Source of the DNA: a virus
Length of the DNA stretch: 26,648 nucleotides
Virus genome (UHGV): UHGV-0191547
Strand: one strand, 5' to 3'
Shown here: piece after piece, positions 2,325-18,552 of the stretch
Position numbering within the stretch: the first letter of the stretch is position 1
Layout of the letters: each line of letters starts with the position of its first letter
Notes under the pieces: model-generated
Told to the model about the DNA's origin: nothing
Databases searched by the model: none
The model's input: the letters and a program-made list of their open reading frames with translations, nothing else
Program-made: the position numbers and the translations under genes

Positions 2325-3014
2325 ATGGTGAAAACTATGATTCATGTTCGAACAGGACAATTTGCGGCGGTGGTAGACGGCAGGAGGTATGCGTTTAATC
2401 CCTGCTTCGCTGCAATGGCTAAGATCGGCAGTGACAGCGAACTGGTCGAATACTTCGCAACCATCCACGGTGGCAAATATCCATCACGATTGCCAGCAGA
2501 TCCAGACCTTCGCAATCGCATTCTGGCGCGGTGTTATGGTGAGTTAGTGCAAACGTCAATACACATCCTGAAATGTTGCTCAGACAACGAAATAGGCCCG
2601 TTATTGGGTGAATGTAGGTTTACTCCTTCCGGCAAATTGCGACTAAAACCCGGACTGATGCCGACCAGTGACGTTATCACGCTGGCGCAACATTGCATGT
2701 ACCACGGTTTAATCGGTGACGGGCCAGAAGAAGACGCCGGAGAGATCCGGGAAGGGGAATATAAGCCGACTTTTAACGTGCTGGAATTCGTTTATTCTGC
2801 CGTAGCTCACCTGGGGTTATCAGAATCAGAAGCATGGAATATGACAATGACCGGATATAGAGCCGCCGTACGCGCTAAAACGCCGCCAGACGAAAGAAAC
2901 GAGAGAAGCAAGCCAAACGTTCACATAAATAAACGTGCTTATGACGAGCAAATGGAGGCCGCTAAAAAGGCACTAGAAAGAATGAAAAATCGAGAGCAAG
3001 AAAAAGCCCGGTAG
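2325..3014 (+). CDS. Tail assembly chaperone-like protein (positional, G/GT equivalent)
   Basis: 229 aa ORF immediately upstream of the tape-measure region with a basic/acidic C-terminus; no motif recognised. Confidence 0.3.
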   Translation: MVKTMIHVRTGQFAAVVDGRRYAFNPCFAAMAKIGSDSELVEYFATIHGGKYPSRLPADPDLRNRILARCYGELVQTSIHILKCCSDNEIGPLLGECRFTPSGKLRLKPGLMPTSDVITLAQHCMYHGLIGDGPEEDAGEIREGEYKPTFNVLEFVYSAVAHLGLSESEAWNMTMTGYRAAVRAKTPPDERNERSKPNVHINKRAYDEQMEAAKKALERMKNREQEKAR

Positions 3015-3039: not shown

Positions 3040-3360
3040 TTATGCTATTTTTTCGTAAAGCACATTCATCTGGGTGCGAATCACTGTTAATATATTGATT
3101 GCTGCGTTCTTATCAATGCGTTTATTCGCTACTATTTTTGTTTTCCCATCAATAACAACCAGATCTGCGTGCAATACATGGTTGAAGTTGACAATGTAAT
3201 AATACTGTTTATCGCCAACATGTTGAACATATGCACCATTTAGATTTCCTTTATACCCACAATCACGCTCTGCGACACCGAAGTCAAATTCGCGGTTCAT
3301 CTTGCGATTATATGCTACTTGTTTATGTTCCCATTTTCTCATCCATTCATCGCGCTTCAT
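3040..3360 (-). CDS. Hypothetical protein, antisense cargo cassette A
   Basis: 106 aa ORF 9 nt downstream of the lipoprotein gene on the - strand, RBS AAGGGTGA; AT-rich by eye. Confidence 0.5.
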   Translation of the reverse strand: MKRDEWMRKWEHKQVAYNRKMNREFDFGVAERDCGYKGNLNGAYVQHVGDKQYYYIVNFNHVLHADLVVIDGKTKIVANKRIDKNAAINILTVIRTQMNVLYEKIA

Positions 3361-3369
3361 GTTTCACCC

Positions 3370-4029
3370 TTAATTCCAGTTGCAAGCGTTTTTTACTTTG
3401 TCGATGTGGTTATAAAGACCATCAATGTTAAACACTGCTTTCTCAATGTCGCCAGCTTCCGGCACTACTTCAATGATAAATTGTTTTTCGTTAACCAGAT
3501 TTTTAATCATTGGGATGGCTTTTTTGTCGTTCCATAATCCAAGAGCTTTATAGTTAGTTGACCGCCCCCATTCAGTGGCTACAGCTTTGTGATCGCCGAT
3601 CCGGTAGTTAATATAAGTAGCGTCCCCGGCGTCAGTTACACGGTGTGACCATGCTACGAACATTTTTGTTTTATTACCCTGGCAAGCAATTGTTAATACC
3701 GGTTTATTATTATCCTGTGCCTTCAGTGCCGGGAAGGCATCAAGACTTCCGCTAAAATGATCTGCTTTCACAAAAAGGAACACGTTTTTTGTGTCCTGCA
3801 TATCATCTTTTCTTTCGACCACAAGCCACTGTTTACCAGCTTTTTCTTTTGCTAACTGTGCCTCATATGCGGCTTGTTTTGCTTGTTGTTCCGCAAGCCA
3901 TTTAGCATTTTTCTCAGCCAATGCTTGTTGTTCTTGAGTGGTCACTATAGGCGCTTTTTCATTATCCTCATTGCAACCAACCAGACCCAATACCGCCGCA
4001 ATCATTGCCACTTTTGCTAACTGTTTCAT
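3370..4029 (-). CDS. Lipoprotein, antisense cargo cassette A
   Basis: 219 aa; N-terminus MKQLAKVAMIAAVLGLVGC is a signal peptide with lipobox L-V-G-C; Ala/Gln/Lys-rich predicted coiled segment after the lipidated Cys. Confidence 0.65.
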   Translation of the reverse strand: MKQLAKVAMIAAVLGLVGCNEDNEKAPIVTTQEQQALAEKNAKWLAEQQAKQAAYEAQLAKEKAGKQWLVVERKDDMQDTKNVFLFVKADHFSGSLDAFPALKAQDNNKPVLTIACQGNKTKMFVAWSHRVTDAGDATYINYRIGDHKAVATEWGRSTNYKALGLWNDKKAIPMIKNLVNEKQFIIEVVPEAGDIEKAVFNIDGLYNHIDKVKNACNWN

Positions 4030-4289: not shown

Positions 4290-6629
4290 ATGGCTACCAG
4301 TGTAGGTACAATTTATTACGAAGTTGATGCAAAAACTGGTCAACTTCTCGTTGCACAACGACAGGCAGACCAGGCCTTTGACCGTATAGAGCGCGGCGCA
4401 AAACAGGCTGACCGCCAGGTAAACACCCTGAAAACATCCATCAAGGCACTGACCAGGGTTATCCATTTGCTAATTGCTGCCGAGGCTGTGCGCCAATTTA
4501 TGGATATGGCGGAGCAAGCCAAAATGCTTCGCGTAAAAATCAAATTGCTTACAGGTGAAGCGGAGGCAACGGAACGGGTTTTCAACAGACTGAAAGAAAT
4601 ATCAAAAGAAACAGGCCAAAGCCTCAAGGATACTGGTGCCCTGTGGCAAGGTCTTGCTATATCGCTAAAAAACACATCCGCCACAGAAGGCCAGGTGCTC
4701 AACCTGGTCAGCACGCTGCAAAAACTTGGTAACTTGGGCGGCGTGTCTGCGGAACAACTATCAAACTCCATGCTTCAGTTCCGCCAGGCTATTGATGCTG
4801 GCGTGTTGCAGGCGGAAGAGTTCAACTCAATACGTGATAACACCCCAACAATCATACAGGAAATGGCCCGACAGATGGGGTTATCTATGGGGCAGTTCCG
4901 CGCCGAAATGCTGGACGGCAAGATCACGGCTGAAAGGATGCTCAACGCGATCCAGGCGGCTACGCAGGAAACAAACGAGAAGTTTGCACAGTTACCGCGC
5001 ACGTCCGGTATGGCTTTTAATGAGCTTAAAGTCGAGGTGATGGGACTTGTCGAACAACTTGATGATCTTTTCGGCATATCAGATGGCGTTGTGTCAGCTA
5101 TCGACTTAATAACTGGTGGCGTTGAGGGATTAGGTAAAGGCGCAAAATTCGCCGCAACCTGTTTCAATACACTAAAAACGGCTGGCAGTGAGTTTATCGA
5201 CATGTTTGATGATGTTGCTGTTAAAGCTGGTGAGGTGGCGGAAGAGATTATCAGGATGGTAACGCCAATCAAAGCGCTAATGGATGGCTACAAATGGATG
5301 AAGGAGATCATTGATAAACGCAAGAATGAGCTAAACAGCAACAACGAAAAGAAATTCGGCCCTACAGTCGGTAAGGTCATGACGTTTGCAAATGACATCA
5401 AAAATGCGACCGCCGCTTATGATGAGTTTATGCAGAAACAGGGTGAGGCTGATGACGGCAAGATCACCGGATTCGATCAGCCAGTTGGCAAGCCGAAAAA
5501 AGGGAAAAAAGACAAGAAATCTGAAGCTGATCGGCTTGGTGATGAAGGCATAAAAGTATCCGACCAGTACAACAAAGACGCCGCAGCTATGCGCAAAGCG
5601 TTAGAGAACGGCAAGGCCATTGATGCTGCATTCGCCCAGGGTAAAATCACTCTCCTTGAGTACCGCGCCGCGCAAAAAGGGATAGGTAAGGAACTGAAGG
5701 AAGAATTAGCGCAAATTCCGGTAGATGAATTGCGTGATAAATGGGCGCAAATAGTAAGCCCGATGGATCAGCTTAAAGGTGAGGTTGACCCTATCCAGCA
5801 GGTGCAGAATGAATGGGCCGTCCGTAAGCAAATGCTTATCGACCTGGGCGTTACTGAAGCGCAACAGAAACAGGAACTGTTAGCCTATGAGCAACAGATC
5901 CGTGATCTGAAGTGGGAACAGTGGCAGGCACAAAGCGATACAAACGGCCTTATCGGTGATTGCGTTAATGGCCTAAAAGGTGGTATGAGCAATGCACTTG
6001 TTGGCCTGTTAAATGGTACTCAATCATTGAGTGATGTTTTTGCTAACTTAGGCAGCAATATCCTCGGGAATATCGGTAACAGGCTTTCAGACATAGCTGC
6101 AAACTGGATAGCAGATCAGATCATGATGGAAACGCAAAGCAAAGCGACTCAGGCAAGTACCACGGCGGGCGCGGTAGCGGCGCAAGGCCAGATTGCTGCG
6201 GCGGCGGCCCCGGCGGCGGCGGCAACAGCGGCGTCAACTGGCGGCGCATGGGCGGCGGCTGGTTCTGCGGCACTCACTGCGATCATGTCGCTGGCTACGT
6301 CAATTTTCGGCGGCGGTCGCTTTAATGGTGGTAGCGTTATTGGTGGCAATATGTACCGCGTAGGGGAACACAACAGGCCGGAGCTATTCCAGACATCTAA
6401 CGGAAATCAATATATGATCCCAGGCGAGAATGGCAGGGTTATTCCTGGGCGTGATATTGGCGGTGGCGGCGGCATTAGTATGCCTGTCAATATCAACATT
6501 CAGACCACAAACGGATTTAGCGACGAAGACAGTCGCAGACTTGAGCAAACAATGGAACGTGTAGCAATGAAGATGATAACAAGGGAATCACAAAGACCTG
6601 GAGGAATATTGCAACCGCGCCGCAAATAA
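4290..6629 (+). CDS. Tail tape measure protein
   Basis: 779 aa, alpha-helical N-terminal two thirds, Ala/Gly-rich low-complexity tract (AAAAPAAAATAAS), located between chaperone and gpM homologue. Confidence 0.9.
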   Translation: MATSVGTIYYEVDAKTGQLLVAQRQADQAFDRIERGAKQADRQVNTLKTSIKALTRVIHLLIAAEAVRQFMDMAEQAKMLRVKIKLLTGEAEATERVFNRLKEISKETGQSLKDTGALWQGLAISLKNTSATEGQVLNLVSTLQKLGNLGGVSAEQLSNSMLQFRQAIDAGVLQAEEFNSIRDNTPTIIQEMARQMGLSMGQFRAEMLDGKITAERMLNAIQAATQETNEKFAQLPRTSGMAFNELKVEVMGLVEQLDDLFGISDGVVSAIDLITGGVEGLGKGAKFAATCFNTLKTAGSEFIDMFDDVAVKAGEVAEEIIRMVTPIKALMDGYKWMKEIIDKRKNELNSNNEKKFGPTVGKVMTFANDIKNATAAYDEFMQKQGEADDGKITGFDQPVGKPKKGKKDKKSEADRLGDEGIKVSDQYNKDAAAMRKALENGKAIDAAFAQGKITLLEYRAAQKGIGKELKEELAQIPVDELRDKWAQIVSPMDQLKGEVDPIQQVQNEWAVRKQMLIDLGVTEAQQKQELLAYEQQIRDLKWEQWQAQSDTNGLIGDCVNGLKGGMSNALVGLLNGTQSLSDVFANLGSNILGNIGNRLSDIAANWIADQIMMETQSKATQASTTAGAVAAQGQIAAAAAPAAAATAASTGGAWAAAGSAALTAIMSLATSIFGGGRFNGGSVIGGNMYRVGEHNRPELFQTSNGNQYMIPGENGRVIPGRDIGGGGGISMPVNINIQTTNGFSDEDSRRLEQTMERVAMKMITRESQRPGGILQPRRK

Positions 6630-11384: not shown

Positions 11385-14300
11385 ATGAGTAGCGGCGGCG
11401 GCAAAGCAAAAACACCAACTTTAATTAACGATAATCTATATCACAAACAGTTTTATCGTGTACTCGACATTATTTCAGAAGGTCCGATTTATGGTCCTGT
11501 TAATACCAATGCGCCATTAAACAGCGTAATGCTTAATGACACCCCTGTAACTGACGCGAACGGCAATACCAGCATCCCCGGTATTAGCGTAGCGTGGCGC
11601 AATGGTACGATAGATCAATCACCGATTAACGGTTTTAACGCCATTGAATCAACCGTTATTGTTAACGCACAGGTTAAACACGATACACCAATAATCAGGA
11701 CCGTTTCCGATCCTAACGTAAACCGCGTTCGCCTGAATATCGGCGTCGATTCACTTGTACAATCTGACGAGCAAAGCAATCAACATAACACATCGGTTAT
11801 GATGATGATTGACGTGAAGCCTTCGTCTTCTTCTACGTGGACGCTTGTTAAAGACGTTACTATAGGCCCAGGTAAGATCAGCGGAGAATATCTTGAAGCG
11901 CATATTATCAATGCACCAGATGAAAAACCGTTTGATATTCGCGTTCGCCGTGTAACCGCTGATAGCACAAGCGATCTGTTGCAGAATGATACGCGATGGA
12001 GTAGCTACAGCGAAATAATCGACGATAATTTGTCTTATCCTCACACCGCTGTAGCTGGCGCGGTAATTGACCATGATCAGTACGCTGACACGCCTACCCG
12101 CACCTATCACCTTCGCGGGCTGATTGTTGATATTCCTGATAACTACGACCCGGAAAAGCGCACTTATTCCGGTTTGTGGCTTGGCGGCTTCAAACAGGCG
12201 TACACCAATAACCCAGCATGGATCTTCCGCTATCTGGTTAAAAACGAGCGTTTCGGCCTTGCTCGTCACGCTGGCTATATTGACGTTGACGACGGCGCAT
12301 TATATACGCTTTCTCAATACTGCGACCAGTTGGTTGATGATGGCTACGGCGGCCTTGAGCCTCGCATGACGCTTAACGCTTACATCACAGAGCAAATGAG
12401 CGCCCGCGACTTACTGGACAATATCGCCGGGATGTTCAGGGGTATCGCGTTATGGGACGGGCAACGCCTTACCGTGATGATTGATGCACCACAAGACCCG
12501 ATCGCCACCATTACAAATGCAAATGTCGTTGATGGCGCGTTTACTCGTTCAAGTATCGCCCGCGCAGAATGCTACAACGCCGTGATCGTATCATGGACTG
12601 ACCCGGAAAACGGATGGGAGCAATCAAAAGAGTATGTAGCAGACGATGAACTGATCGCCCGTGATGGTTACAACGAAACCACGTTAGAGGCGTTCGGGTG
12701 CACATCACGCGGGCAAGCATACCGCGCGGGCAAGTGGCTGATAGAAACAGCAAAACGCGAGCCGTCAAAATTCACGTTTAAAATGGCGCGTGACGCGATT
12801 CACTTTACGCCAGGGGATATTATCGAGATACTCGACAATAACCGCGCAGGCGCTCGTTTAGGCGGCCGCATCGTTGCGAACAACGGCAAAGTAATAACGG
12901 TAGATAAGGTTGACGCCAATTATATCGCCGCTGGGGATACAATCAGCCTTCTTGATAGCGATGGCAAGTTTAAAAAGCATCAGATCACCGGGGTGAGCGG
13001 AAACAAAATCACACTGGCGGCGGCCCCGTCATGGATTCGAAACGGCACTGTTTTTGCTGTATCCACTGAATCAGCAAAACCCGTTTTGTGCCGGATCACC
13101 AGTGTAGCCGAAACAGAAAATAACAGCGTGTACACCATCGAGGCCGCACAGCACGACCCGAACAAGCAAGCAGTGGTCGATGAAGGCGCAATATTTGAAG
13201 TCAACAATGACACGCTTAACCATTTCCGCGTGCCGAACATTGAAAATCTGAAGGTGGTAAACATTGGATCGGAAACAATTCAATGTCGCGCCACATGGGA
13301 AACGCAGACAACAACGCATCGTATGACATTTGAGATCCGCATATATAATGCAGATGGTGCGGTGGTTAAAAGCTATGAAACAACGAAATACAGTTATGAT
13401 TTTTATGGCATTGACGCTGGCGTGTATTCTTTAGGGGTTCGCGGAAGAAATGACACTGGCATGAAGGGCGCGGAAAGTATTGTGGATCTGGTTATTGGTG
13501 CGCCAGCAGCGCCAATAGGTGTTAACTGGGTACCAGGTGTATTTCAGGCTACCGTATACCCGATAAGTAAGACAACGCTAACCACTGATACAGCGTATGA
13601 ATTCTACTATGCAGGGGAAAACCAGATCACAGATCCGGCAAAAATAACCACGGCGGCACAGTTTACCGGGCGCGGGTATCAGTGGACGTTCGGCGGAATG
13701 AACACGGGCCATACTTATTACGTTTATGTGCGTACACGTAATGCTTTTGGCGTGTCAGACTTCGTTGAAGCATCAGGTAAGCCGACAGAAAATTTTGATG
13801 AAATTAGCGATTACGTCACCAAAGACGTGATGAATTCCGAACAATTTAAAGAAATGGTGGGCGACATTAAGGATCTTGGCGATCGCACTGACATTATCGA
13901 AAGTGCAACTCAAGACCTTAAAACAGCTACTGATACCCTAAGCGGAATAACTGAAGGCTTAAGAACTGATACTGATAATTTAATTACAGAAACAGAATCA
14001 ATTAAAGCTGATACTGATTCCCTTAAAAAAGACACTGAAGACCTTTACAAGAAAGTCGAAGAAAACGCCGATGAAATAGGTAAACATGAGGTAAGAATTG
14101 ACTCATTAGAGGTATCAAGCGAAAACGTAGATAATGAACTGGCACAGACAAAAGCAAGCCTACAAAACGCATCGCTTGCTCTTATTAATAATTCGCTTGC
14201 TCAAACTAATACCAGAAGAACGCTGACAGCTCAGATCAAAAACGTGGATTATGAAACTAAGGCGCAAATAGATCGCATTGATAACGTGATTGTCAGTGAA

Positions 14301-16304
14301 AAAGAAGCAAGAGCGGAGGCAATGGAGACAATTACCGCCGAAATCGACACGATGGATAAAAACATCAAAGGTGAGATTGCGCGCGTAGATACTGCCATTG
14401 CCAATGAGAGCCAGGCAAGGGCTGATGCCATCAGTGAAGTTAGCGCAAACATTGACGCACTTGATAGTAAAACAGATGCCAGTGTTAATCGTCTTGATCA
14501 AGCTATCGCAGATGAGGCCAGCGCACGCGCACAGGCTATCAGCAATGTCAATGCGAGCATGACAAATCTTGATAACAAGGTTACAAGCAACGTTTCTAGA
14601 CTTGATCAGGCAATAGCTGACGAATCAAGCGCAAGAGCAGAAGCCGATGATCAGTTAATAGCAAAAAGCGAAAAACTTGATGGTGATCTCGCTATGGCAA
14701 GGGCAAGCCTACAAAACGCTTCGCTTGCTCTCATCAATAATACATTGTCTCAGACAAAGACAAGGCGCACTCTCACAGCGGAGTTCAAACGCGGACAAAG
14801 TGAAACTAAAGCACAAATTGACCGTATTGATAATGTCATTACTGACGAAAAACAGGCAACAGCGGAAGCGTTTGAAACTATCACAGCAGAAATGAACACG
14901 ATGGACTCAAACATTAAAGGAGAAATATCACGATTAGATAAAGTGATCGCGACTGAAACGCAAGCAAGATCTGAAGCTATAAGTAGTGTTAATGCAAGCA
15001 TAAAGACGCTAGAAAGCGACACTGAAGCCAGCGTTAACCGTCTTGATCAGGCAGTTGCTGACGAGGCCAGCGCCCGCGCACAAGCTATCAGCGGAGTAAA
15101 TGCAAGCATCAGCACGCTTGATAGCAAGGTTACAAGCAATGTGACCCGTATCGACAAAGCTATTGCAGATGAGACGCAGGCCCGCACAGACGCAATAAGC
15201 AACCTTAACTCATCGCTTACCAGTACGATTAATTCTAAAGTATCTGAAGTATCAACAGCACTTTCTACGCATGAAGCATCAAGCGCGGAAAAATTCAGCC
15301 AGATCTCAGCGTCTTTCGAAGCTGTAAACTCAAGCATCACGGAATGGTCGCAGACCATGACAACGGCGGACGAGGCATTATCAACCAAAATTGATCAGTT
15401 AACAGTAACCGTTAATGGGAACACAACAGCGATCGAGACGACATCGAAAGCGTTAACCGACTTCAAAGGTAATGTTGATGCGTCATGGTCAATCAAGATT
15501 GCTACTGATAACAACGGCATGAAATACGCTACAGGTATGTCGCTTGGCCTGACTGGTAGCGGGACTAACGTTCAATCGCAGTGTATTTTCCTCGTTGACC
15601 GCTTCGTGTTAATGACCGCAGCAAACGGCACATATACAACGCCTTTCTATGTGTCTAATGGTGCAATGTATGTGAAAGAAGCGTTTATTAAAAACGCATC
15701 AATAGGTACAGCTAAAATTGCAGATGCAGCCATTACTATGGCTAAAATTGTTAATGAAATAAAATCATCAAACTATGTTGCTGGTTCTAAAGGTTGGAGG
15801 ATAACACAAAGCGGATCATCAGAATTTAACGATGTTGTGGTAAGGGGCGAAATCCATGCTAATAGCGGTAAATTCAAAGGAACTGTAGAAGCTACATCCT
15901 TTGTTGGTGATGTCGCATCTACTAACGTTATACCGCAATCATCATTCCCTGGGACAAGTACAAGCGGATCTCGATCTGTTACGAAGACGTATAAAGATTC
16001 ATCATCAAGCTCGCTTTCGAAAACAGTTTTCGTAATGATTCCTTACCATCTTACTTATTATACTTATTCAGGATCATCAACAATAAAAGTAACAATTGAT
16101 ATTAATGGCAATAGCAAAACATATAACGTAGTAAGGGCGGCATCATCGCCTCAATTCGGATTTACGGTATCACATTGCGTAACTGGGATTACTGCTCAAA
16201 CAGTTACGATAAAAATAACAGAGGAATACACCAACACCGGAACATCAGCAGAAAGAAGGCCAGGTCTTGCACTTGTTACAAGAAGCTCAGGATCATGGTC
16301 ATAA
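11385..16304 (+). CDS. J: Central tail fibre / host specificity protein J with an expanded coiled-coil repeat region
   Basis: 1639 aa; N-terminal ISEGPIYGP, FGCTSRGQAYRAGKWL and the C-terminal KYATGMSLG...FLVDRF block match recalled lambda gpJ; about 500 aa of heptad-like repeats inserted between them. Confidence 0.9.
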   Translation: MSSGGGKAKTPTLINDNLYHKQFYRVLDIISEGPIYGPVNTNAPLNSVMLNDTPVTDANGNTSIPGISVAWRNGTIDQSPINGFNAIESTVIVNAQVKHDTPIIRTVSDPNVNRVRLNIGVDSLVQSDEQSNQHNTSVMMMIDVKPSSSSTWTLVKDVTIGPGKISGEYLEAHIINAPDEKPFDIRVRRVTADSTSDLLQNDTRWSSYSEIIDDNLSYPHTAVAGAVIDHDQYADTPTRTYHLRGLIVDIPDNYDPEKRTYSGLWLGGFKQAYTNNPAWIFRYLVKNERFGLARHAGYIDVDDGALYTLSQYCDQLVDDGYGGLEPRMTLNAYITEQMSARDLLDNIAGMFRGIALWDGQRLTVMIDAPQDPIATITNANVVDGAFTRSSIARAECYNAVIVSWTDPENGWEQSKEYVADDELIARDGYNETTLEAFGCTSRGQAYRAGKWLIETAKREPSKFTFKMARDAIHFTPGDIIEILDNNRAGARLGGRIVANNGKVITVDKVDANYIAAGDTISLLDSDGKFKKHQITGVSGNKITLAAAPSWIRNGTVFAVSTESAKPVLCRITSVAETENNSVYTIEAAQHDPNKQAVVDEGAIFEVNNDTLNHFRVPNIENLKVVNIGSETIQCRATWETQTTTHRMTFEIRIYNADGAVVKSYETTKYSYDFYGIDAGVYSLGVRGRNDTGMKGAESIVDLVIGAPAAPIGVNWVPGVFQATVYPISKTTLTTDTAYEFYYAGENQITDPAKITTAAQFTGRGYQWTFGGMNTGHTYYVYVRTRNAFGVSDFVEASGKPTENFDEISDYVTKDVMNSEQFKEMVGDIKDLGDRTDIIESATQDLKTATDTLSGITEGLRTDTDNLITETESIKADTDSLKKDTEDLYKKVEENADEIGKHEVRIDSLEVSSENVDNELAQTKASLQNASLALINNSLAQTNTRRTLTAQIKNVDYETKAQIDRIDNVIVSEKEARAEAMETITAEIDTMDKNIKGEIARVDTAIANESQARADAISEVSANIDALDSKTDASVNRLDQAIADEASARAQAISNVNASMTNLDNKVTSNVSRLDQAIADESSARAEADDQLIAKSEKLDGDLAMARASLQNASLALINNTLSQTKTRRTLTAEFKRGQSETKAQIDRIDNVITDEKQATAEAFETITAEMNTMDSNIKGEISRLDKVIATETQARSEAISSVNASIKTLESDTEASVNRLDQAVADEASARAQAISGVNASISTLDSKVTSNVTRIDKAIADETQARTDAISNLNSSLTSTINSKVSEVSTALSTHEASSAEKFSQISASFEAVNSSITEWSQTMTTADEALSTKIDQLTVTVNGNTTAIETTSKALTDFKGNVDASWSIKIATDNNGMKYATGMSLGLTGSGTNVQSQCIFLVDRFVLMTAANGTYTTPFYVSNGAMYVKEAFIKNASIGTAKIADAAITMAKIVNEIKSSNYVAGSKGWRITQSGSSEFNDVVVRGEIHANSGKFKGTVEATSFVGDVASTNVIPQSSFPGTSTSGSRSVTKTYKDSSSSSLSKTVFVMIPYHLTYYTYSGSSTIKVTIDINGNSKTYNVVRAASSPQFGFTVSHCVTGITAQTVTIKITEEYTNTGTSAERRPGLALVTRSSGSWS
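14154..15200 (+). repeat. Intragenic tandem duplication in J (two diverged units of about 550 bp, roughly 183 aa each)
   Basis: Both units open with GCAAGCCTACAAAACGC (14154 and 14704) and contain nested VNRLDQA(I/V)ADE(A/S)SARA sub-repeats. Confidence 0.8.
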
Positions 16305-16306
16305 AA

Positions 16307-16335
16307 AATAACCCCGCTTCGCGCGGGGTTTTCTT
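16307..16335. terminator. Rho-independent terminator after J (CCCCGC-ttcgc-GCGGGG then TTTTCTTTT)
   Basis: Hairpin plus T-run; reverse complement of the 8112-8134 element. Confidence 0.6.
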
Positions 16336-16584
16336 TTAGTAGTTAGCTACACAATTCGACGGGCTACCTATGCGGCGCATGTTGTGATCGAGTTCATGAC
16401 ACCATTGACCAGTATATGGCAGTTTTTCAGTGTCATATACAAGATGACCATTAGCATCATAGACGATTTCTTGTGGAATCACTCCGCTATTTGGCAGGTT
16501 ATGCAATGCAGCTTCTTTGTCAACAGCGCAACCAGTAAGAGCAACAGCCGCAGCGAATAAAACCACTTTGAACATGTTTTTCAT
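16336..16584 (-). CDS. Small lipoprotein (82 aa), antisense cassette D between J and the tail fibre
   Basis: MKNMFKVVLFAAAVALTGC signal peptide with lipobox A-L-T-G-C; single gene between two terminators. Confidence 0.6.
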   Translation of the reverse strand: MKNMFKVVLFAAAVALTGCAVDKEAALHNLPNSGVIPQEIVYDANGHLVYDTEKLPYTGQWCHELDHNMRRIGSPSNCVANY

Positions 16585-16761
16585 TTTTTAATCCTCGTTC
16601 TTGTTAGCTCATCCGGTTCATCCGGTGGCTTAAATATCCGACAAAACCACATTTCGTATATTGATATAAATCAATAAATACATTTTGTATAAGTCAAAAA
16701 TGTAACATAGATCACAAAATGGTAGAATTATTCCGTTAATTAACATAATGGAGTCATTGCG

Positions 16762-18552
16762 ATGATTTATACAACGGGAACAATTGCCATTAACGGCAAT
16801 ACTGTTACAGGCACGGGAACAAACTTTTCCGCGCCGCTTTCTCTCATCCGTGTAGGTTGCACGCTCATTGCCATTAGCAATCCTATCCAGATCTTTACCA
16901 TCACAGAAATTAAGAGCGGTACTGAACTGTCAGTGACGCCAGCGGCTAACCCTGCAATTGCTGCCGGGGCAAAATTCAGCATTCTGCTTTCTGACTCTAT
17001 CTCAGTTGATGGGCTTGCCCAGGATGTAGCGGAAACACTTCGTTTTTATCAGGAAAAAGAAGACGAAATATCCAGCGCAATAGATGGCAGCAATATTGGC
17101 TTAGGTCCAGAGCCGCGCGATTGCGTCGATATATCAGGCGATCCGTCTTCTTACGTTGGCTTTTTGCGCATAAAGGAAACGACTAAGGGTTTTCCTTCTG
17201 TAGCGGCTGGTGAATCATTTTTGAGTGGATTTATCTGTCAACGAGACACGACGCCTTCATATACAGGCGTCTTTGTCGGTTGGGCTACGCGATCACTTTA
17301 TACGTATACATGGGTCGCAACATCAGGTCCGAACTGGACACGACACGCAAGAAAAGATGAGGTGGATAGGCTTGTTCAAAGAACAGGAGAAACTCGCGTA
17401 CGCGCTCAAAACGCAAATAAATTCCTTACCGTCTATGATTCAGGATCGTGGGGTTATTATGACTCAGAGGCTAGTAAATGGCTACCGCTTCCAGTTCTTG
17501 CTGGAGGCACTGGTGCGGGAAACGCAGAAGAAGCAAGAAATAATTTAAATCTTGGTGAAAGCAACGCGGTTAAATTCAAAAACCTTACGTTAATAGGGGC
17601 GCTAGATGCAAATTTAGGCATGCTCGTAAAAACTGGAAGAGACTGGAATACTCAGCACACTGACAATATCCAAAAATTTATACCAATGGCAGGAAGCACA
17701 AACGGACCCGCCGGAGCAATGGTACTCGGTGGCTTCCATGTGCAATACAGCACAAATTACGCTGTGCAATTCGGGGGTCGAAATTCCGGTTTTTGGGGTA
17801 GAACAATTGAAAACGGAACAGTTCAGGAATGGCGTCAACTAGCTACGCTTAACACATCCGGTCAAAAATGGACTGCCGGTCAGCATTTTGTGACGACAAA
17901 AATTAACTCTTATGATTTCACAAGACGTTTAACTATCGATGTGATAGAAAACGCAAAAACAAACGCACGGTTACGCTTATGGGGATCAGAAACAAGGCAG
18001 TCCGTTTTAGAATATGGACTCTCGAACGCTGAAACCGATGAGTATAATACATATGGCTTTTATTGCCAGCTTAACCCAGACGGAGTAATTAGTTTTCAGG
18101 TTAACGGCGTAGTAAACTGCACAGCAGTTAATCAGACTTCAGATCGCGATCTGAAGGACAACATTCAGGTTATAGGTGATGCAACTGAAGCAATCCGTAA
18201 AATGAACGGGTACACCTACACCCTCAAGGAAAACGGCCTGCCTTACGCTGGCGTTATCGCTCAAGAGGTAATGGAGGCGCTGCCGGAGGCTGTGGGATCG
18301 TTTACTCATTACGGTAAAGCATTACAAGGCCCGACCACTGACGGCAACGAGCTACGCGAGGAAACGCGTTACCTCAATGTTGACTACGCTGCGGTGACTG
18401 GTTTACTTGTTCAGGTGGCACGCGAAACAGATAACCGCGTCACCGAACTGGAGGAAGAAAACGCCAGCTTACGAGCTAACATTGCCGTCATGGATGAGCG
18501 GATCACAAAACTTGAAGCGCTTGTCAGGCAGTTAACCGGAAGCGAAGAATAA
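16762..18552 (+). CDS. Tail fibre/tailspike protein with C-terminal intramolecular chaperone (peptidase S74-like) domain
   Basis: 596 aa; C-terminal TSDRDLKDNIQVIGDATEAIRKMNGYTY...YAGVIAQEV followed by a coiled coil is the S74 autoproteolytic chaperone signature. Confidence 0.75.
   Translation: MIYTTGTIAINGNTVTGTGTNFSAPLSLIRVGCTLIAISNPIQIFTITEIKSGTELSVTPAANPAIAAGAKFSILLSDSISVDGLAQDVAETLRFYQEKEDEISSAIDGSNIGLGPEPRDCVDISGDPSSYVGFLRIKETTKGFPSVAAGESFLSGFICQRDTTPSYTGVFVGWATRSLYTYTWVATSGPNWTRHARKDEVDRLVQRTGETRVRAQNANKFLTVYDSGSWGYYDSEASKWLPLPVLAGGTGAGNAEEARNNLNLGESNAVKFKNLTLIGALDANLGMLVKTGRDWNTQHTDNIQKFIPMAGSTNGPAGAMVLGGFHVQYSTNYAVQFGGRNSGFWGRTIENGTVQEWRQLATLNTSGQKWTAGQHFVTTKINSYDFTRRLTIDVIENAKTNARLRLWGSETRQSVLEYGLSNAETDEYNTYGFYCQLNPDGVISFQVNGVVNCTAVNQTSDRDLKDNIQVIGDATEAIRKMNGYTYTLKENGLPYAGVIAQEVMEALPEAVGSFTHYGKALQGPTTDGNELREETRYLNVDYAAVTGLLVQVARETDNRVTELEEENASLRANIAVMDERITKLEALVRQLTGSEE

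Follow-up and report, generated by a model that had tools for sequence, protein, structure and literature searches.

The closest described counterpart of the protein discussed here is the product of gene gp116 of coliphage mEp010 (Lpp010), named a "type-C lipoprotein" in the mEpimmI paper (Front Microbiol 2025; PMC11893012). According to that paper, plasmid-expressed Lpp010 excludes mEp010, mEp044, mEp554, and, unexpectedly, lambda, while mEp013 escapes the exclusion; all four of the mEp phages (mEp010, mEp013, mEp044, and mEp554) require lamB. The assay, as described there, was a spot test of plaque formation on cells overexpressing Lpp010 from a plasmid with Ptac, and the authors leave two options, namely, that the lipoprotein may "interfere with DNA ejection or block the host receptor." The same paper reports that Lpp021 excludes the OmpA-dependent phages mEp021 and mEp515. 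For Bas23 and other phages that target LamB, Van den Berg et al. remark that they "likely do have SE lipoproteins" downstream of gpJ (PMC9586334), and the BASEL paper describes receptor-specific loci that are paired with cognate exclusion genes at the post-gpJ position (PMC8594841). Structures of Llp and Rtp45 have been deposited in the PDB according to their respective papers (PMC9586334 and PMC12685063), the latter as entry 9RPS. Rtp45 disables LptDE from the periplasm: it inserts a hairpin into the lumen of the barrel and thereby displaces the extracellular loops (PMC12685063). The exclusion-lipoprotein family examined below is already known, having been described and tested in near-identical phages, and is not new here.

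The window, i.e., the whole stretch of 26,648 nucleotides from the UHGV virus genome UHGV-0191547, carries a gene of this kind between the genes for the tail tip protein J and the tail fibre. The features of the locus are as follows:

11385-16304, plus strand: J gene, 1639 aa.
15852-16304, plus strand: receptor-binding tip formed by the last ~150 aa of J, with homology to the corresponding tips of LamB phages.
16310-16330, both strands: bidirectional intrinsic terminator found by the terminator scan, common to the convergent J and lipoprotein genes.
16336-16584, minus strand: lipoprotein gene, an open reading frame of 82 aa plus stop, PHROG 12984, orthologue of mEp010 gp116.
16339-16527, minus strand: mature domain, residues 20-82, with motifs conserved in the family alignment.
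16528-16584, minus strand: type II signal peptide (residues 1-18) and lipobox Cys19, from the translation.
16585-16761, no strand: intergenic region from which the lipoprotein and tail fibre genes diverge, near-invariant in six phages.
16592-16596, minus strand: Shine-Dalgarno sequence GAGGA, 7 nt upstream of the ATG, kept in all 6 of the 6 aligned phages.
16607-16629, minus strand: tandem 9-mer repeat, two copies of TCATCCGGT (two copies of ACCGGATGA on the minus strand), forming a weak hairpin.
16762-18552, plus strand: tail fibre gene, 596 aa, with a C-terminal S74 intramolecular chaperone domain (Pfam PF13884, E=1.5e-14).

The open reading frame at 16336-16584 (minus strand) did not arise by chance but is a real gene. 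Fifteen pairwise comparisons among six phages revealed strong purifying selection (dN/dS of 0.03-0.14 at dS of 0.17-0.43). Its 82-aa product reads, signal peptide followed by the mature part, MKNMFKVVLFAAAVALTGC|AVDKEAALHNLPNSGVIPQEIVYDANGHLVYDTEKLPYTGQWCHELDHNMRRIGSPSNCVANY. The N-terminal signal peptide (MKNMFKVVLFAAAVA) has a basic, Lys-rich n-region followed by a hydrophobic core and ends in a lipobox, L16-T17-G18-C19, that fits the type II pattern [LVI][ASTVI][GAS]C and has Cys19 as the lipidation site; this Cys is invariant in the alignment of 25 family members. In E. coli, the residue at position +2 after the lipidated Cys directs the sorting of lipoproteins to the inner or the outer membrane. 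That residue is Ala here, so the protein lacks the Asp inner-membrane retention signal, and it is Gly or Ser elsewhere in the family alignment; by the E. coli sorting rule, all three predict outer-membrane localisation. The mature domain is characterised by the conserved motifs PNSGV.P, DTEKLP.TGQWC, and RRIGSPSNC, a terminal Tyr residue, and two cysteines, Cys62 and Cys78, that probably form a disulfide in the periplasm. AlphaFold2 models of the full-length and mature proteins, built with 23-25 homologues, reached mean pLDDT values of 58.3 and 59.8, respectively, which is low confidence, too poor to inform on the mechanism. The stretch VYDANGHLVYDTEKLP had been considered as a possible YD/Rhs repeat; this idea was dropped because no Pfam RHS repeat matched it at E<=10.

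The gene and its slot had both been proposed in an earlier note made from the nucleotide sequence of the window, and both parts of that proposal held: the predicted 82-aa lipoprotein gene is present at 16336-16584 (minus strand), with an LTGC lipobox, a Shine-Dalgarno sequence, and dN/dS of 0.03-0.14, and it does lie as an antisense moron between J (11385-16304) and the fibre gene (16762-18552). The note's further statement that the gene sits between two terminators was half right. The terminator at 16310-16330 is strong and bidirectional, with an 8-bp stem that contains 6 G-C pairs, T-runs on both strands, fold energies of -16.0 and -19.7 kcal/mol, and z-scores of -3.9 and -5.3. The supposed second one, at 16607-16629, proved to be only a weak hairpin formed via two CCGG palindromes (z-scores of -1.8 and -2.2) and was rejected as a terminator, since it has a weak fold and no T-run and the terminator scan found no second terminator at about 16600-16640. 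In those relatives that have been annotated with ARNold, a terminator is marked at the J end only, in the same place as 16310-16330. The 9-mer repeat is located in the 5' leader of the lipoprotein gene and is conserved among the relatives apart from a few substitutions.

The intergenic region at 16585-16761 is more conserved in the alignment of six phages than the synonymous sites of the flanking genes. Both divergent promoters are presumably located within it, and the region may also contain a binding site for a regulator, for which the palindrome TATTGAT-ATAA-ATCAATA (TATTGATATAAATCAATA, 16659-16676) can be noted. A strict sigma-70 scan across 15800-17200 found no promoter; an extended -10-like motif, TGGTAGAAT at 16720-16728 (plus strand), was spotted by eye only. 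A 38-aa ORF upstream of the lipoprotein gene (16630-16746, minus strand) overlaps this conserved AT-rich intergenic DNA and was judged spurious. It is an annotated CDS in MagusPhagus, mEp010, and mEp554, and another frame is annotated in mEp013 and mEp044; the ORF is probably a gene-calling artefact on conserved AT-rich regulatory DNA.

By every criterion testable here, the window protein belongs to the type-C Lpp (PHROG 12984) family. It matches PHROG 12984, labelled only "lipoprotein," with E=4e-27 over residues 7-82 and has all the invariant columns of the family alignment, whereas scans against Pfam (E<=10), NCBIfam, and PADLOC returned nothing meaningful, the few matches being confined to the signal peptide. 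The identity to Lpp010 is 94% over 82 aa. Among the five substitutions, one (M4V) is in the signal peptide and four (E39D, I40V, A44G, and N45S) are in the mature domain, where they cluster at residues 39-45, the most variable patch of the family. The earlier note had suggested a receptor-blocking exclusion lipoprotein, and this suggestion gains support from the near identity to Lpp010, a protein that, in the mEpimmI paper, excludes LamB phages (PMC11893012).

Homologues were detected by tblastn in 44 phage records. Full-length copies with 92-98% identity are encoded by MagusPhagus (98%), mEp010 (94%), mEp013, mEp044, and mEp554. Homologues that are about 59-77% identical over residues 31-82 (most of them about 73%) are found in lytic Seuratvirus/Nonagvirus members (including CAjan, Seurat, slur01, 9g, and Bas21-24) and in dhillonviruses (EP23, PNS1, Maverick, and HH3). 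In every case inspected (mEp010, mEp013, mEp044, mEp554, MagusPhagus, CAjan, KurtStettler, WildeMaa, GottfriedDienst, SeppeHuegi, and EP23), the gene stands alone and in antisense orientation, with J on one side and the fibre gene on the other; the same antisense slot is thus occupied in three unrelated phage lineages, mEpimmI, Seuratvirus, and Dhillonvirus. The family is tiny: clustering at 90% identity gives 27 clusters, and at 50% identity just three representatives are left. An exhaustive search with the family profile across 1.84 billion representative proteins recovered only the three family clusters and one adhesin, a 4467-aa protein with CshA and SdrD repeats (P0030) that matches family profile positions 34-62 in nine repeats with E=2e-5. 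This match is probably a fortuitous short motif, repeated in the adhesin, and the distant relationship was judged spurious. Most records, among them those of the mEp genomes and the RefSeq prophages, either call the gene product a "hypothetical protein" or carry no annotation for it; the gene is present yet unannotated, for example, in the RefSeq/GenBank records of EP23 (at ~5920-6160 of locus L003) and PNS1.

Megablast groups the window with the mEp021-like (mEpimmI) temperate, non-lambdoid coliphages. The nearest cultured relative is MagusPhagus (94.5% identity across 86% of the window), and mEp010, mEp013, mEp044, mEp554, mEp021, and mEp515 show 84-86% identity across 44-61%. The fibre gene of the window is followed by an integrase gene and, farther on, by genes for NinB and DnaB. 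Prophage copies of the lipoprotein module adjoin genes for M20 peptidases, taken to be abgA/abgB, in E. coli assemblies. The module is found in about 10-25 of 5426 complete E. coli genomes, and the exact 82-aa protein is present in 141 blocks of public assemblies. In integrated prophages (loci L015 and L017-L020), it is the fibre-gene end that abuts the M20 peptidase genes, with an ABG_transport-domain gene at one locus; these host neighbours are taken to be abgA, abgB, and abgT. In a metagenome scaffold (L016) and in the window, the integrase gene directly follows the fibre gene, which indicates that the window has the unintegrated gene order; attP is probably located between 18552 and 18817. 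An additional antisense gene pair (3040-4029, minus strand) is inserted in the tail module of the window, between a tail gene (2325-3014, plus strand) and the tape-measure gene (4290-6629), and looks like another moron. One gene of the pair encodes a 219-aa protein with the VasI domain (type VI secretion, PF11319, E=2.3e-14) and the other a 106-aa protein with no Pfam match.

The carriers of the lipoprotein gene that have been typed all use one receptor. All eight carriers with an experimentally typed receptor among the 44 (Bas21-24, as listed in BASEL S5 Table, and mEp010, mEp013, mEp044, and mEp554, as reported in PMC11893012) use LamB, and the 44 carriers include neither the LptD users Bas20 and Bas25 nor the OmpA users mEp021 and mEp515. 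The carriers also have a common C-terminal J tip, which the J protein of the OmpA-dependent mEp021 lacks. The tip exists in two diverged subtypes, one found in the window, MagusPhagus, CAjan, Bas21, Bas23, Bas24, and EP23, the other in KurtStettler (Bas22), mEp010, mEp013, mEp044, and mEp554, so that phages with proven LamB dependence are present in both. Over its last 150 aa, the window tip is 84% identical to that of MagusPhagus, 50-52% identical to those of CAjan and Bas21/23/24, and 30-34% identical to those of the second subtype (KurtStettler/Bas22 and mEp010/013/044/554), and it aligns to the very end with the tips of LamB-dependent phages. The nearest receptor-tested tip is only 50-52% identical, so that the use of LamB by the window phage is probable rather than certain. 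As a separate observation, J contains a long internal repeat region, across which blastp against relatives yields overlapping, offset alignments, and its length varies from 1393 to 1639 aa among prophages that encode the same lipoprotein as the window; in our reading, the repeats expand and contract rapidly.

The lipoprotein is much more strongly conserved than the tips. In CAjan and KurtStettler, the mature lipoproteins are near-identical and the J tips just 29% identical. The J tip of lambda has no significant BLAST match to the carrier tips over the last ~100 residues, and lambda is nevertheless excluded by Lpp010. A lipoprotein that tracks the conserved host receptor rather than the phage tip would behave in this way.

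Taken together, these data suggest that the gene encodes a small outer-membrane superinfection-exclusion lipoprotein directed against phages that use LamB as the terminal receptor, a reading to which we assign a probability of roughly 0.8. After export and lipidation at Cys19, the precursor would be placed in the inner leaflet of the outer membrane, as its +2 Ala predicts. The mature domain of ~63 residues, probably stabilised by its disulfide, would then engage LamB from the periplasmic side and alter or occlude a surface needed by incoming J tips, so that adsorption or DNA delivery would fail for phages of its own kind and for other LamB phages, including lambda. Such exclusion would prevent superinfection and the loss of progeny on infected cells or debris. 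The engagement of LamB by the mature domain and the ensuing exclusion step are proposed by analogy with the Llp-FhuA and Rtp45-LptDE pairs. We infer that LamB is the direct target and that it is bound from the periplasm from the receptor-defined exclusion spectrum, the strict co-occurrence of the gene with LamB-specific J tips, and the sorting signal.

Exclusion of LamB phages might instead occur after adsorption, through a block in channel formation or in the transit of DNA across the periplasm or inner membrane. The published assay reads plaque formation only and does not separate adsorption from a later step, DNA-ejection interference is one of the two options that the mEpimmI authors allow, and the escape of mEp013 means that LamB is still usable by some tips. 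We nevertheless consider this unlikely: the spectrum of exclusion follows the receptor and extends to lambda, a phage of another group with an unmatched J tip, the +2 residue predicts location in the outer rather than the inner membrane, and both structurally solved analogues from the same slot act on the receptor.

A host-directed function would be a considerably poorer explanation. The protein could be a lysogenic-conversion moron of the Bor/Lom kind, involved in serum resistance or adhesion, or a modulator of maltodextrin uptake, its exclusion activity being a side effect of overexpression. This would fit the position, which corresponds to that of lom in lambda, the stand-alone organisation of the antisense gene, which has a terminator of its own, and an exclusion phenotype known only from plasmid Ptac expression. 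However, seuratviruses and dhillonviruses, which are strictly lytic and lack a lysogenic state, conserve the gene equally well, and it occurs in correlation with LamB-specific J tips; in addition, the Pfam (E<=10), NCBIfam, and PADLOC scans, which cover the Bor and Lom families, gave no match. Such a role appears very improbable. A lysis function, whether as an Rz1-like o-spanin (the outer-membrane spanin subunit) or as a different accessory lipoprotein of lysis, agrees with the size and the lipoprotein nature of the product and with little else, given that J and the tail fibre gene flank the gene and no lysis gene or i-spanin partner adjoins it, the mature part has just 4 Pro in 64 residues, there is no match to a spanin PHROG, and the orthologous Lpp010 has a demonstrated exclusion phenotype. 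Genomic context and composition effectively refute the o-spanin role.

For a LamB-directed exclusion lipoprotein, the way in which the receptor is disabled could be constrained by what is known of the family. The escape of the LamB-dependent mEp013 argues that LamB is not simply absent, removed, or fully plugged in the excluding cells. LamB has no plug domain or known allostery, as stated in the Llp paper (PMC9586334), and the allosteric route through the plug that operates in the Llp-FhuA pair is thus inapplicable. By analogy, Rtp45-LptDE is the most plausible mechanistic template. It is conceivable, albeit doubtful, that the lipoprotein disables a plug-less, non-allosteric trimeric porin by a hitherto undescribed mode; one possibility is that the conserved C-terminal part of the domain is threaded up the maltoporin channel from the periplasm, and another is that the lipoprotein is flipped to the cell surface. 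Channel threading, if true, should also lower maltodextrin uptake. An undescribed mode, if true, would provide a third structural solution to receptor masking after Llp-FhuA and Rtp45-LptDE, with the escape of mEp013 as a means to map the footprint. Any such mechanistic novelty would be a property of the described family and not of the window; how a small lipoprotein disables a passive porin is a family-wide question that merits structural study and to which the window adds one more allele only.

The practical value of the assignment lies in annotation, as the gene can be given the name of a LamB-phage superinfection-exclusion lipoprotein. The lipoprotein and the J tip could together serve as a compact genomic marker of LamB use by a siphophage or prophage, and lysogens are predicted to resist lambda and other LamB phages, a point of relevance for the cocktails used in phage therapy and for the resistance that prophages confer on E. 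coli in the gut.

Comparison with the known systems places Llp (T5) and Cor (T1, phi80, N15, and HK022) close in logic and apart in sequence. Like the window protein, these are small lipoproteins with two cysteines in the mature domain and a gene beside the receptor-binding module, T1 cor also being antisense and abutting a terminator, and they, too, disable the receptor of the phage that encodes them and so protect the cell that it has infected or lysogenised. However, Llp and Cor target FhuA, a TonB-dependent transporter, whereas the typed carriers of the window-type lipoprotein all use LamB, and the Cor-type lead of the earlier note was not borne out. The note had put forward alignment with Cor and Llp as a check, and no similarity of the mature domain to either emerged from alignment with Cor or from searches of the PDB. 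The Cor profile (PHROG 1119) matches the window protein at residues 4-25 only (E=0.078), hhalign of the family profile with T1 Cor covers residues 1-24 only, and BLASTP against T1 Cor aligns residues 7-34 with 36% identity; the last two alignments reach a few residues past the signal peptide and lipobox. Membership in the Cor family was rejected, since the signal peptide region alone aligns and the mature domain does not. In searches of the PDB, phmmer with the single sequence found no chain at E<=10 and the family profile matched only two unrelated chains (E=0.46 and 0.78), so that homology to Llp or Rtp45 was likewise rejected. Rtp45 of phage Rtp resembles the window protein in being a small lipoprotein encoded downstream of gpJ and disables a receptor, LptDE, that is not TonB dependent; it differs in having no detectable sequence similarity and in accompanying a separate RBP gene, whereas here the J tip itself is the RBP.

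Within the same phage group, Lpp021 (mEp021 gp81, the "type-A lipoprotein") shares with the window protein the post-J slot and the kind of function. It differs in being co-transcribed with a 311-aa virion structural protein and in accompanying a J protein that has no C-terminal tip. Kinship between the two lipoproteins was rejected: a MAFFT alignment with 32% identity and common cysteines was judged to be forced, and hhalign gave a probability of 19.5% over the signal peptide only. In mEp021 (L001, 3686-4839) and mEp515, the slot contains the gene for the 311-aa "virion structural protein," for which the mEp021 record mentions an FlgL-like protein, together with the type-A lipoprotein gene; the 311-aa protein is a possible separate RBP, and the J proteins of both phages are devoid of the C-terminal tip. 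Given these different contents in mEp021 and mEp515, the slot is a swappable cassette that combines a receptor-recognition element with an exclusion gene.

The lipoproteins of the LamB-targeting Seuratvirus phages (Bas21-24, CAjan, and Seurat), the nonagvirus 9g, and the dhillonviruses EP23 and PNS1 are nearer still, with a homologous mature domain, the same position and orientation of the gene, and the same association with LamB; they differ in having other signal peptides and a linker after the lipid-anchor Cys that is 3 residues shorter and in being encoded by strictly lytic phages. The closest of all, Lpp010, is also 82 aa long and is identical or nearly identical in the signal peptide and lipobox and over its last 37 residues; its gene likewise lies antisense between J and the tail fibre gene, with the common terminator and a near-identical upstream region. 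The J tip of mEp010 departs from that of the window, being of the other subtype and 32% identical over the last 150 aa, with the window closer to the CAjan/Bas21 type. The window lipoprotein works like Cor, Llp, and Rtp45 and belongs to none of them.
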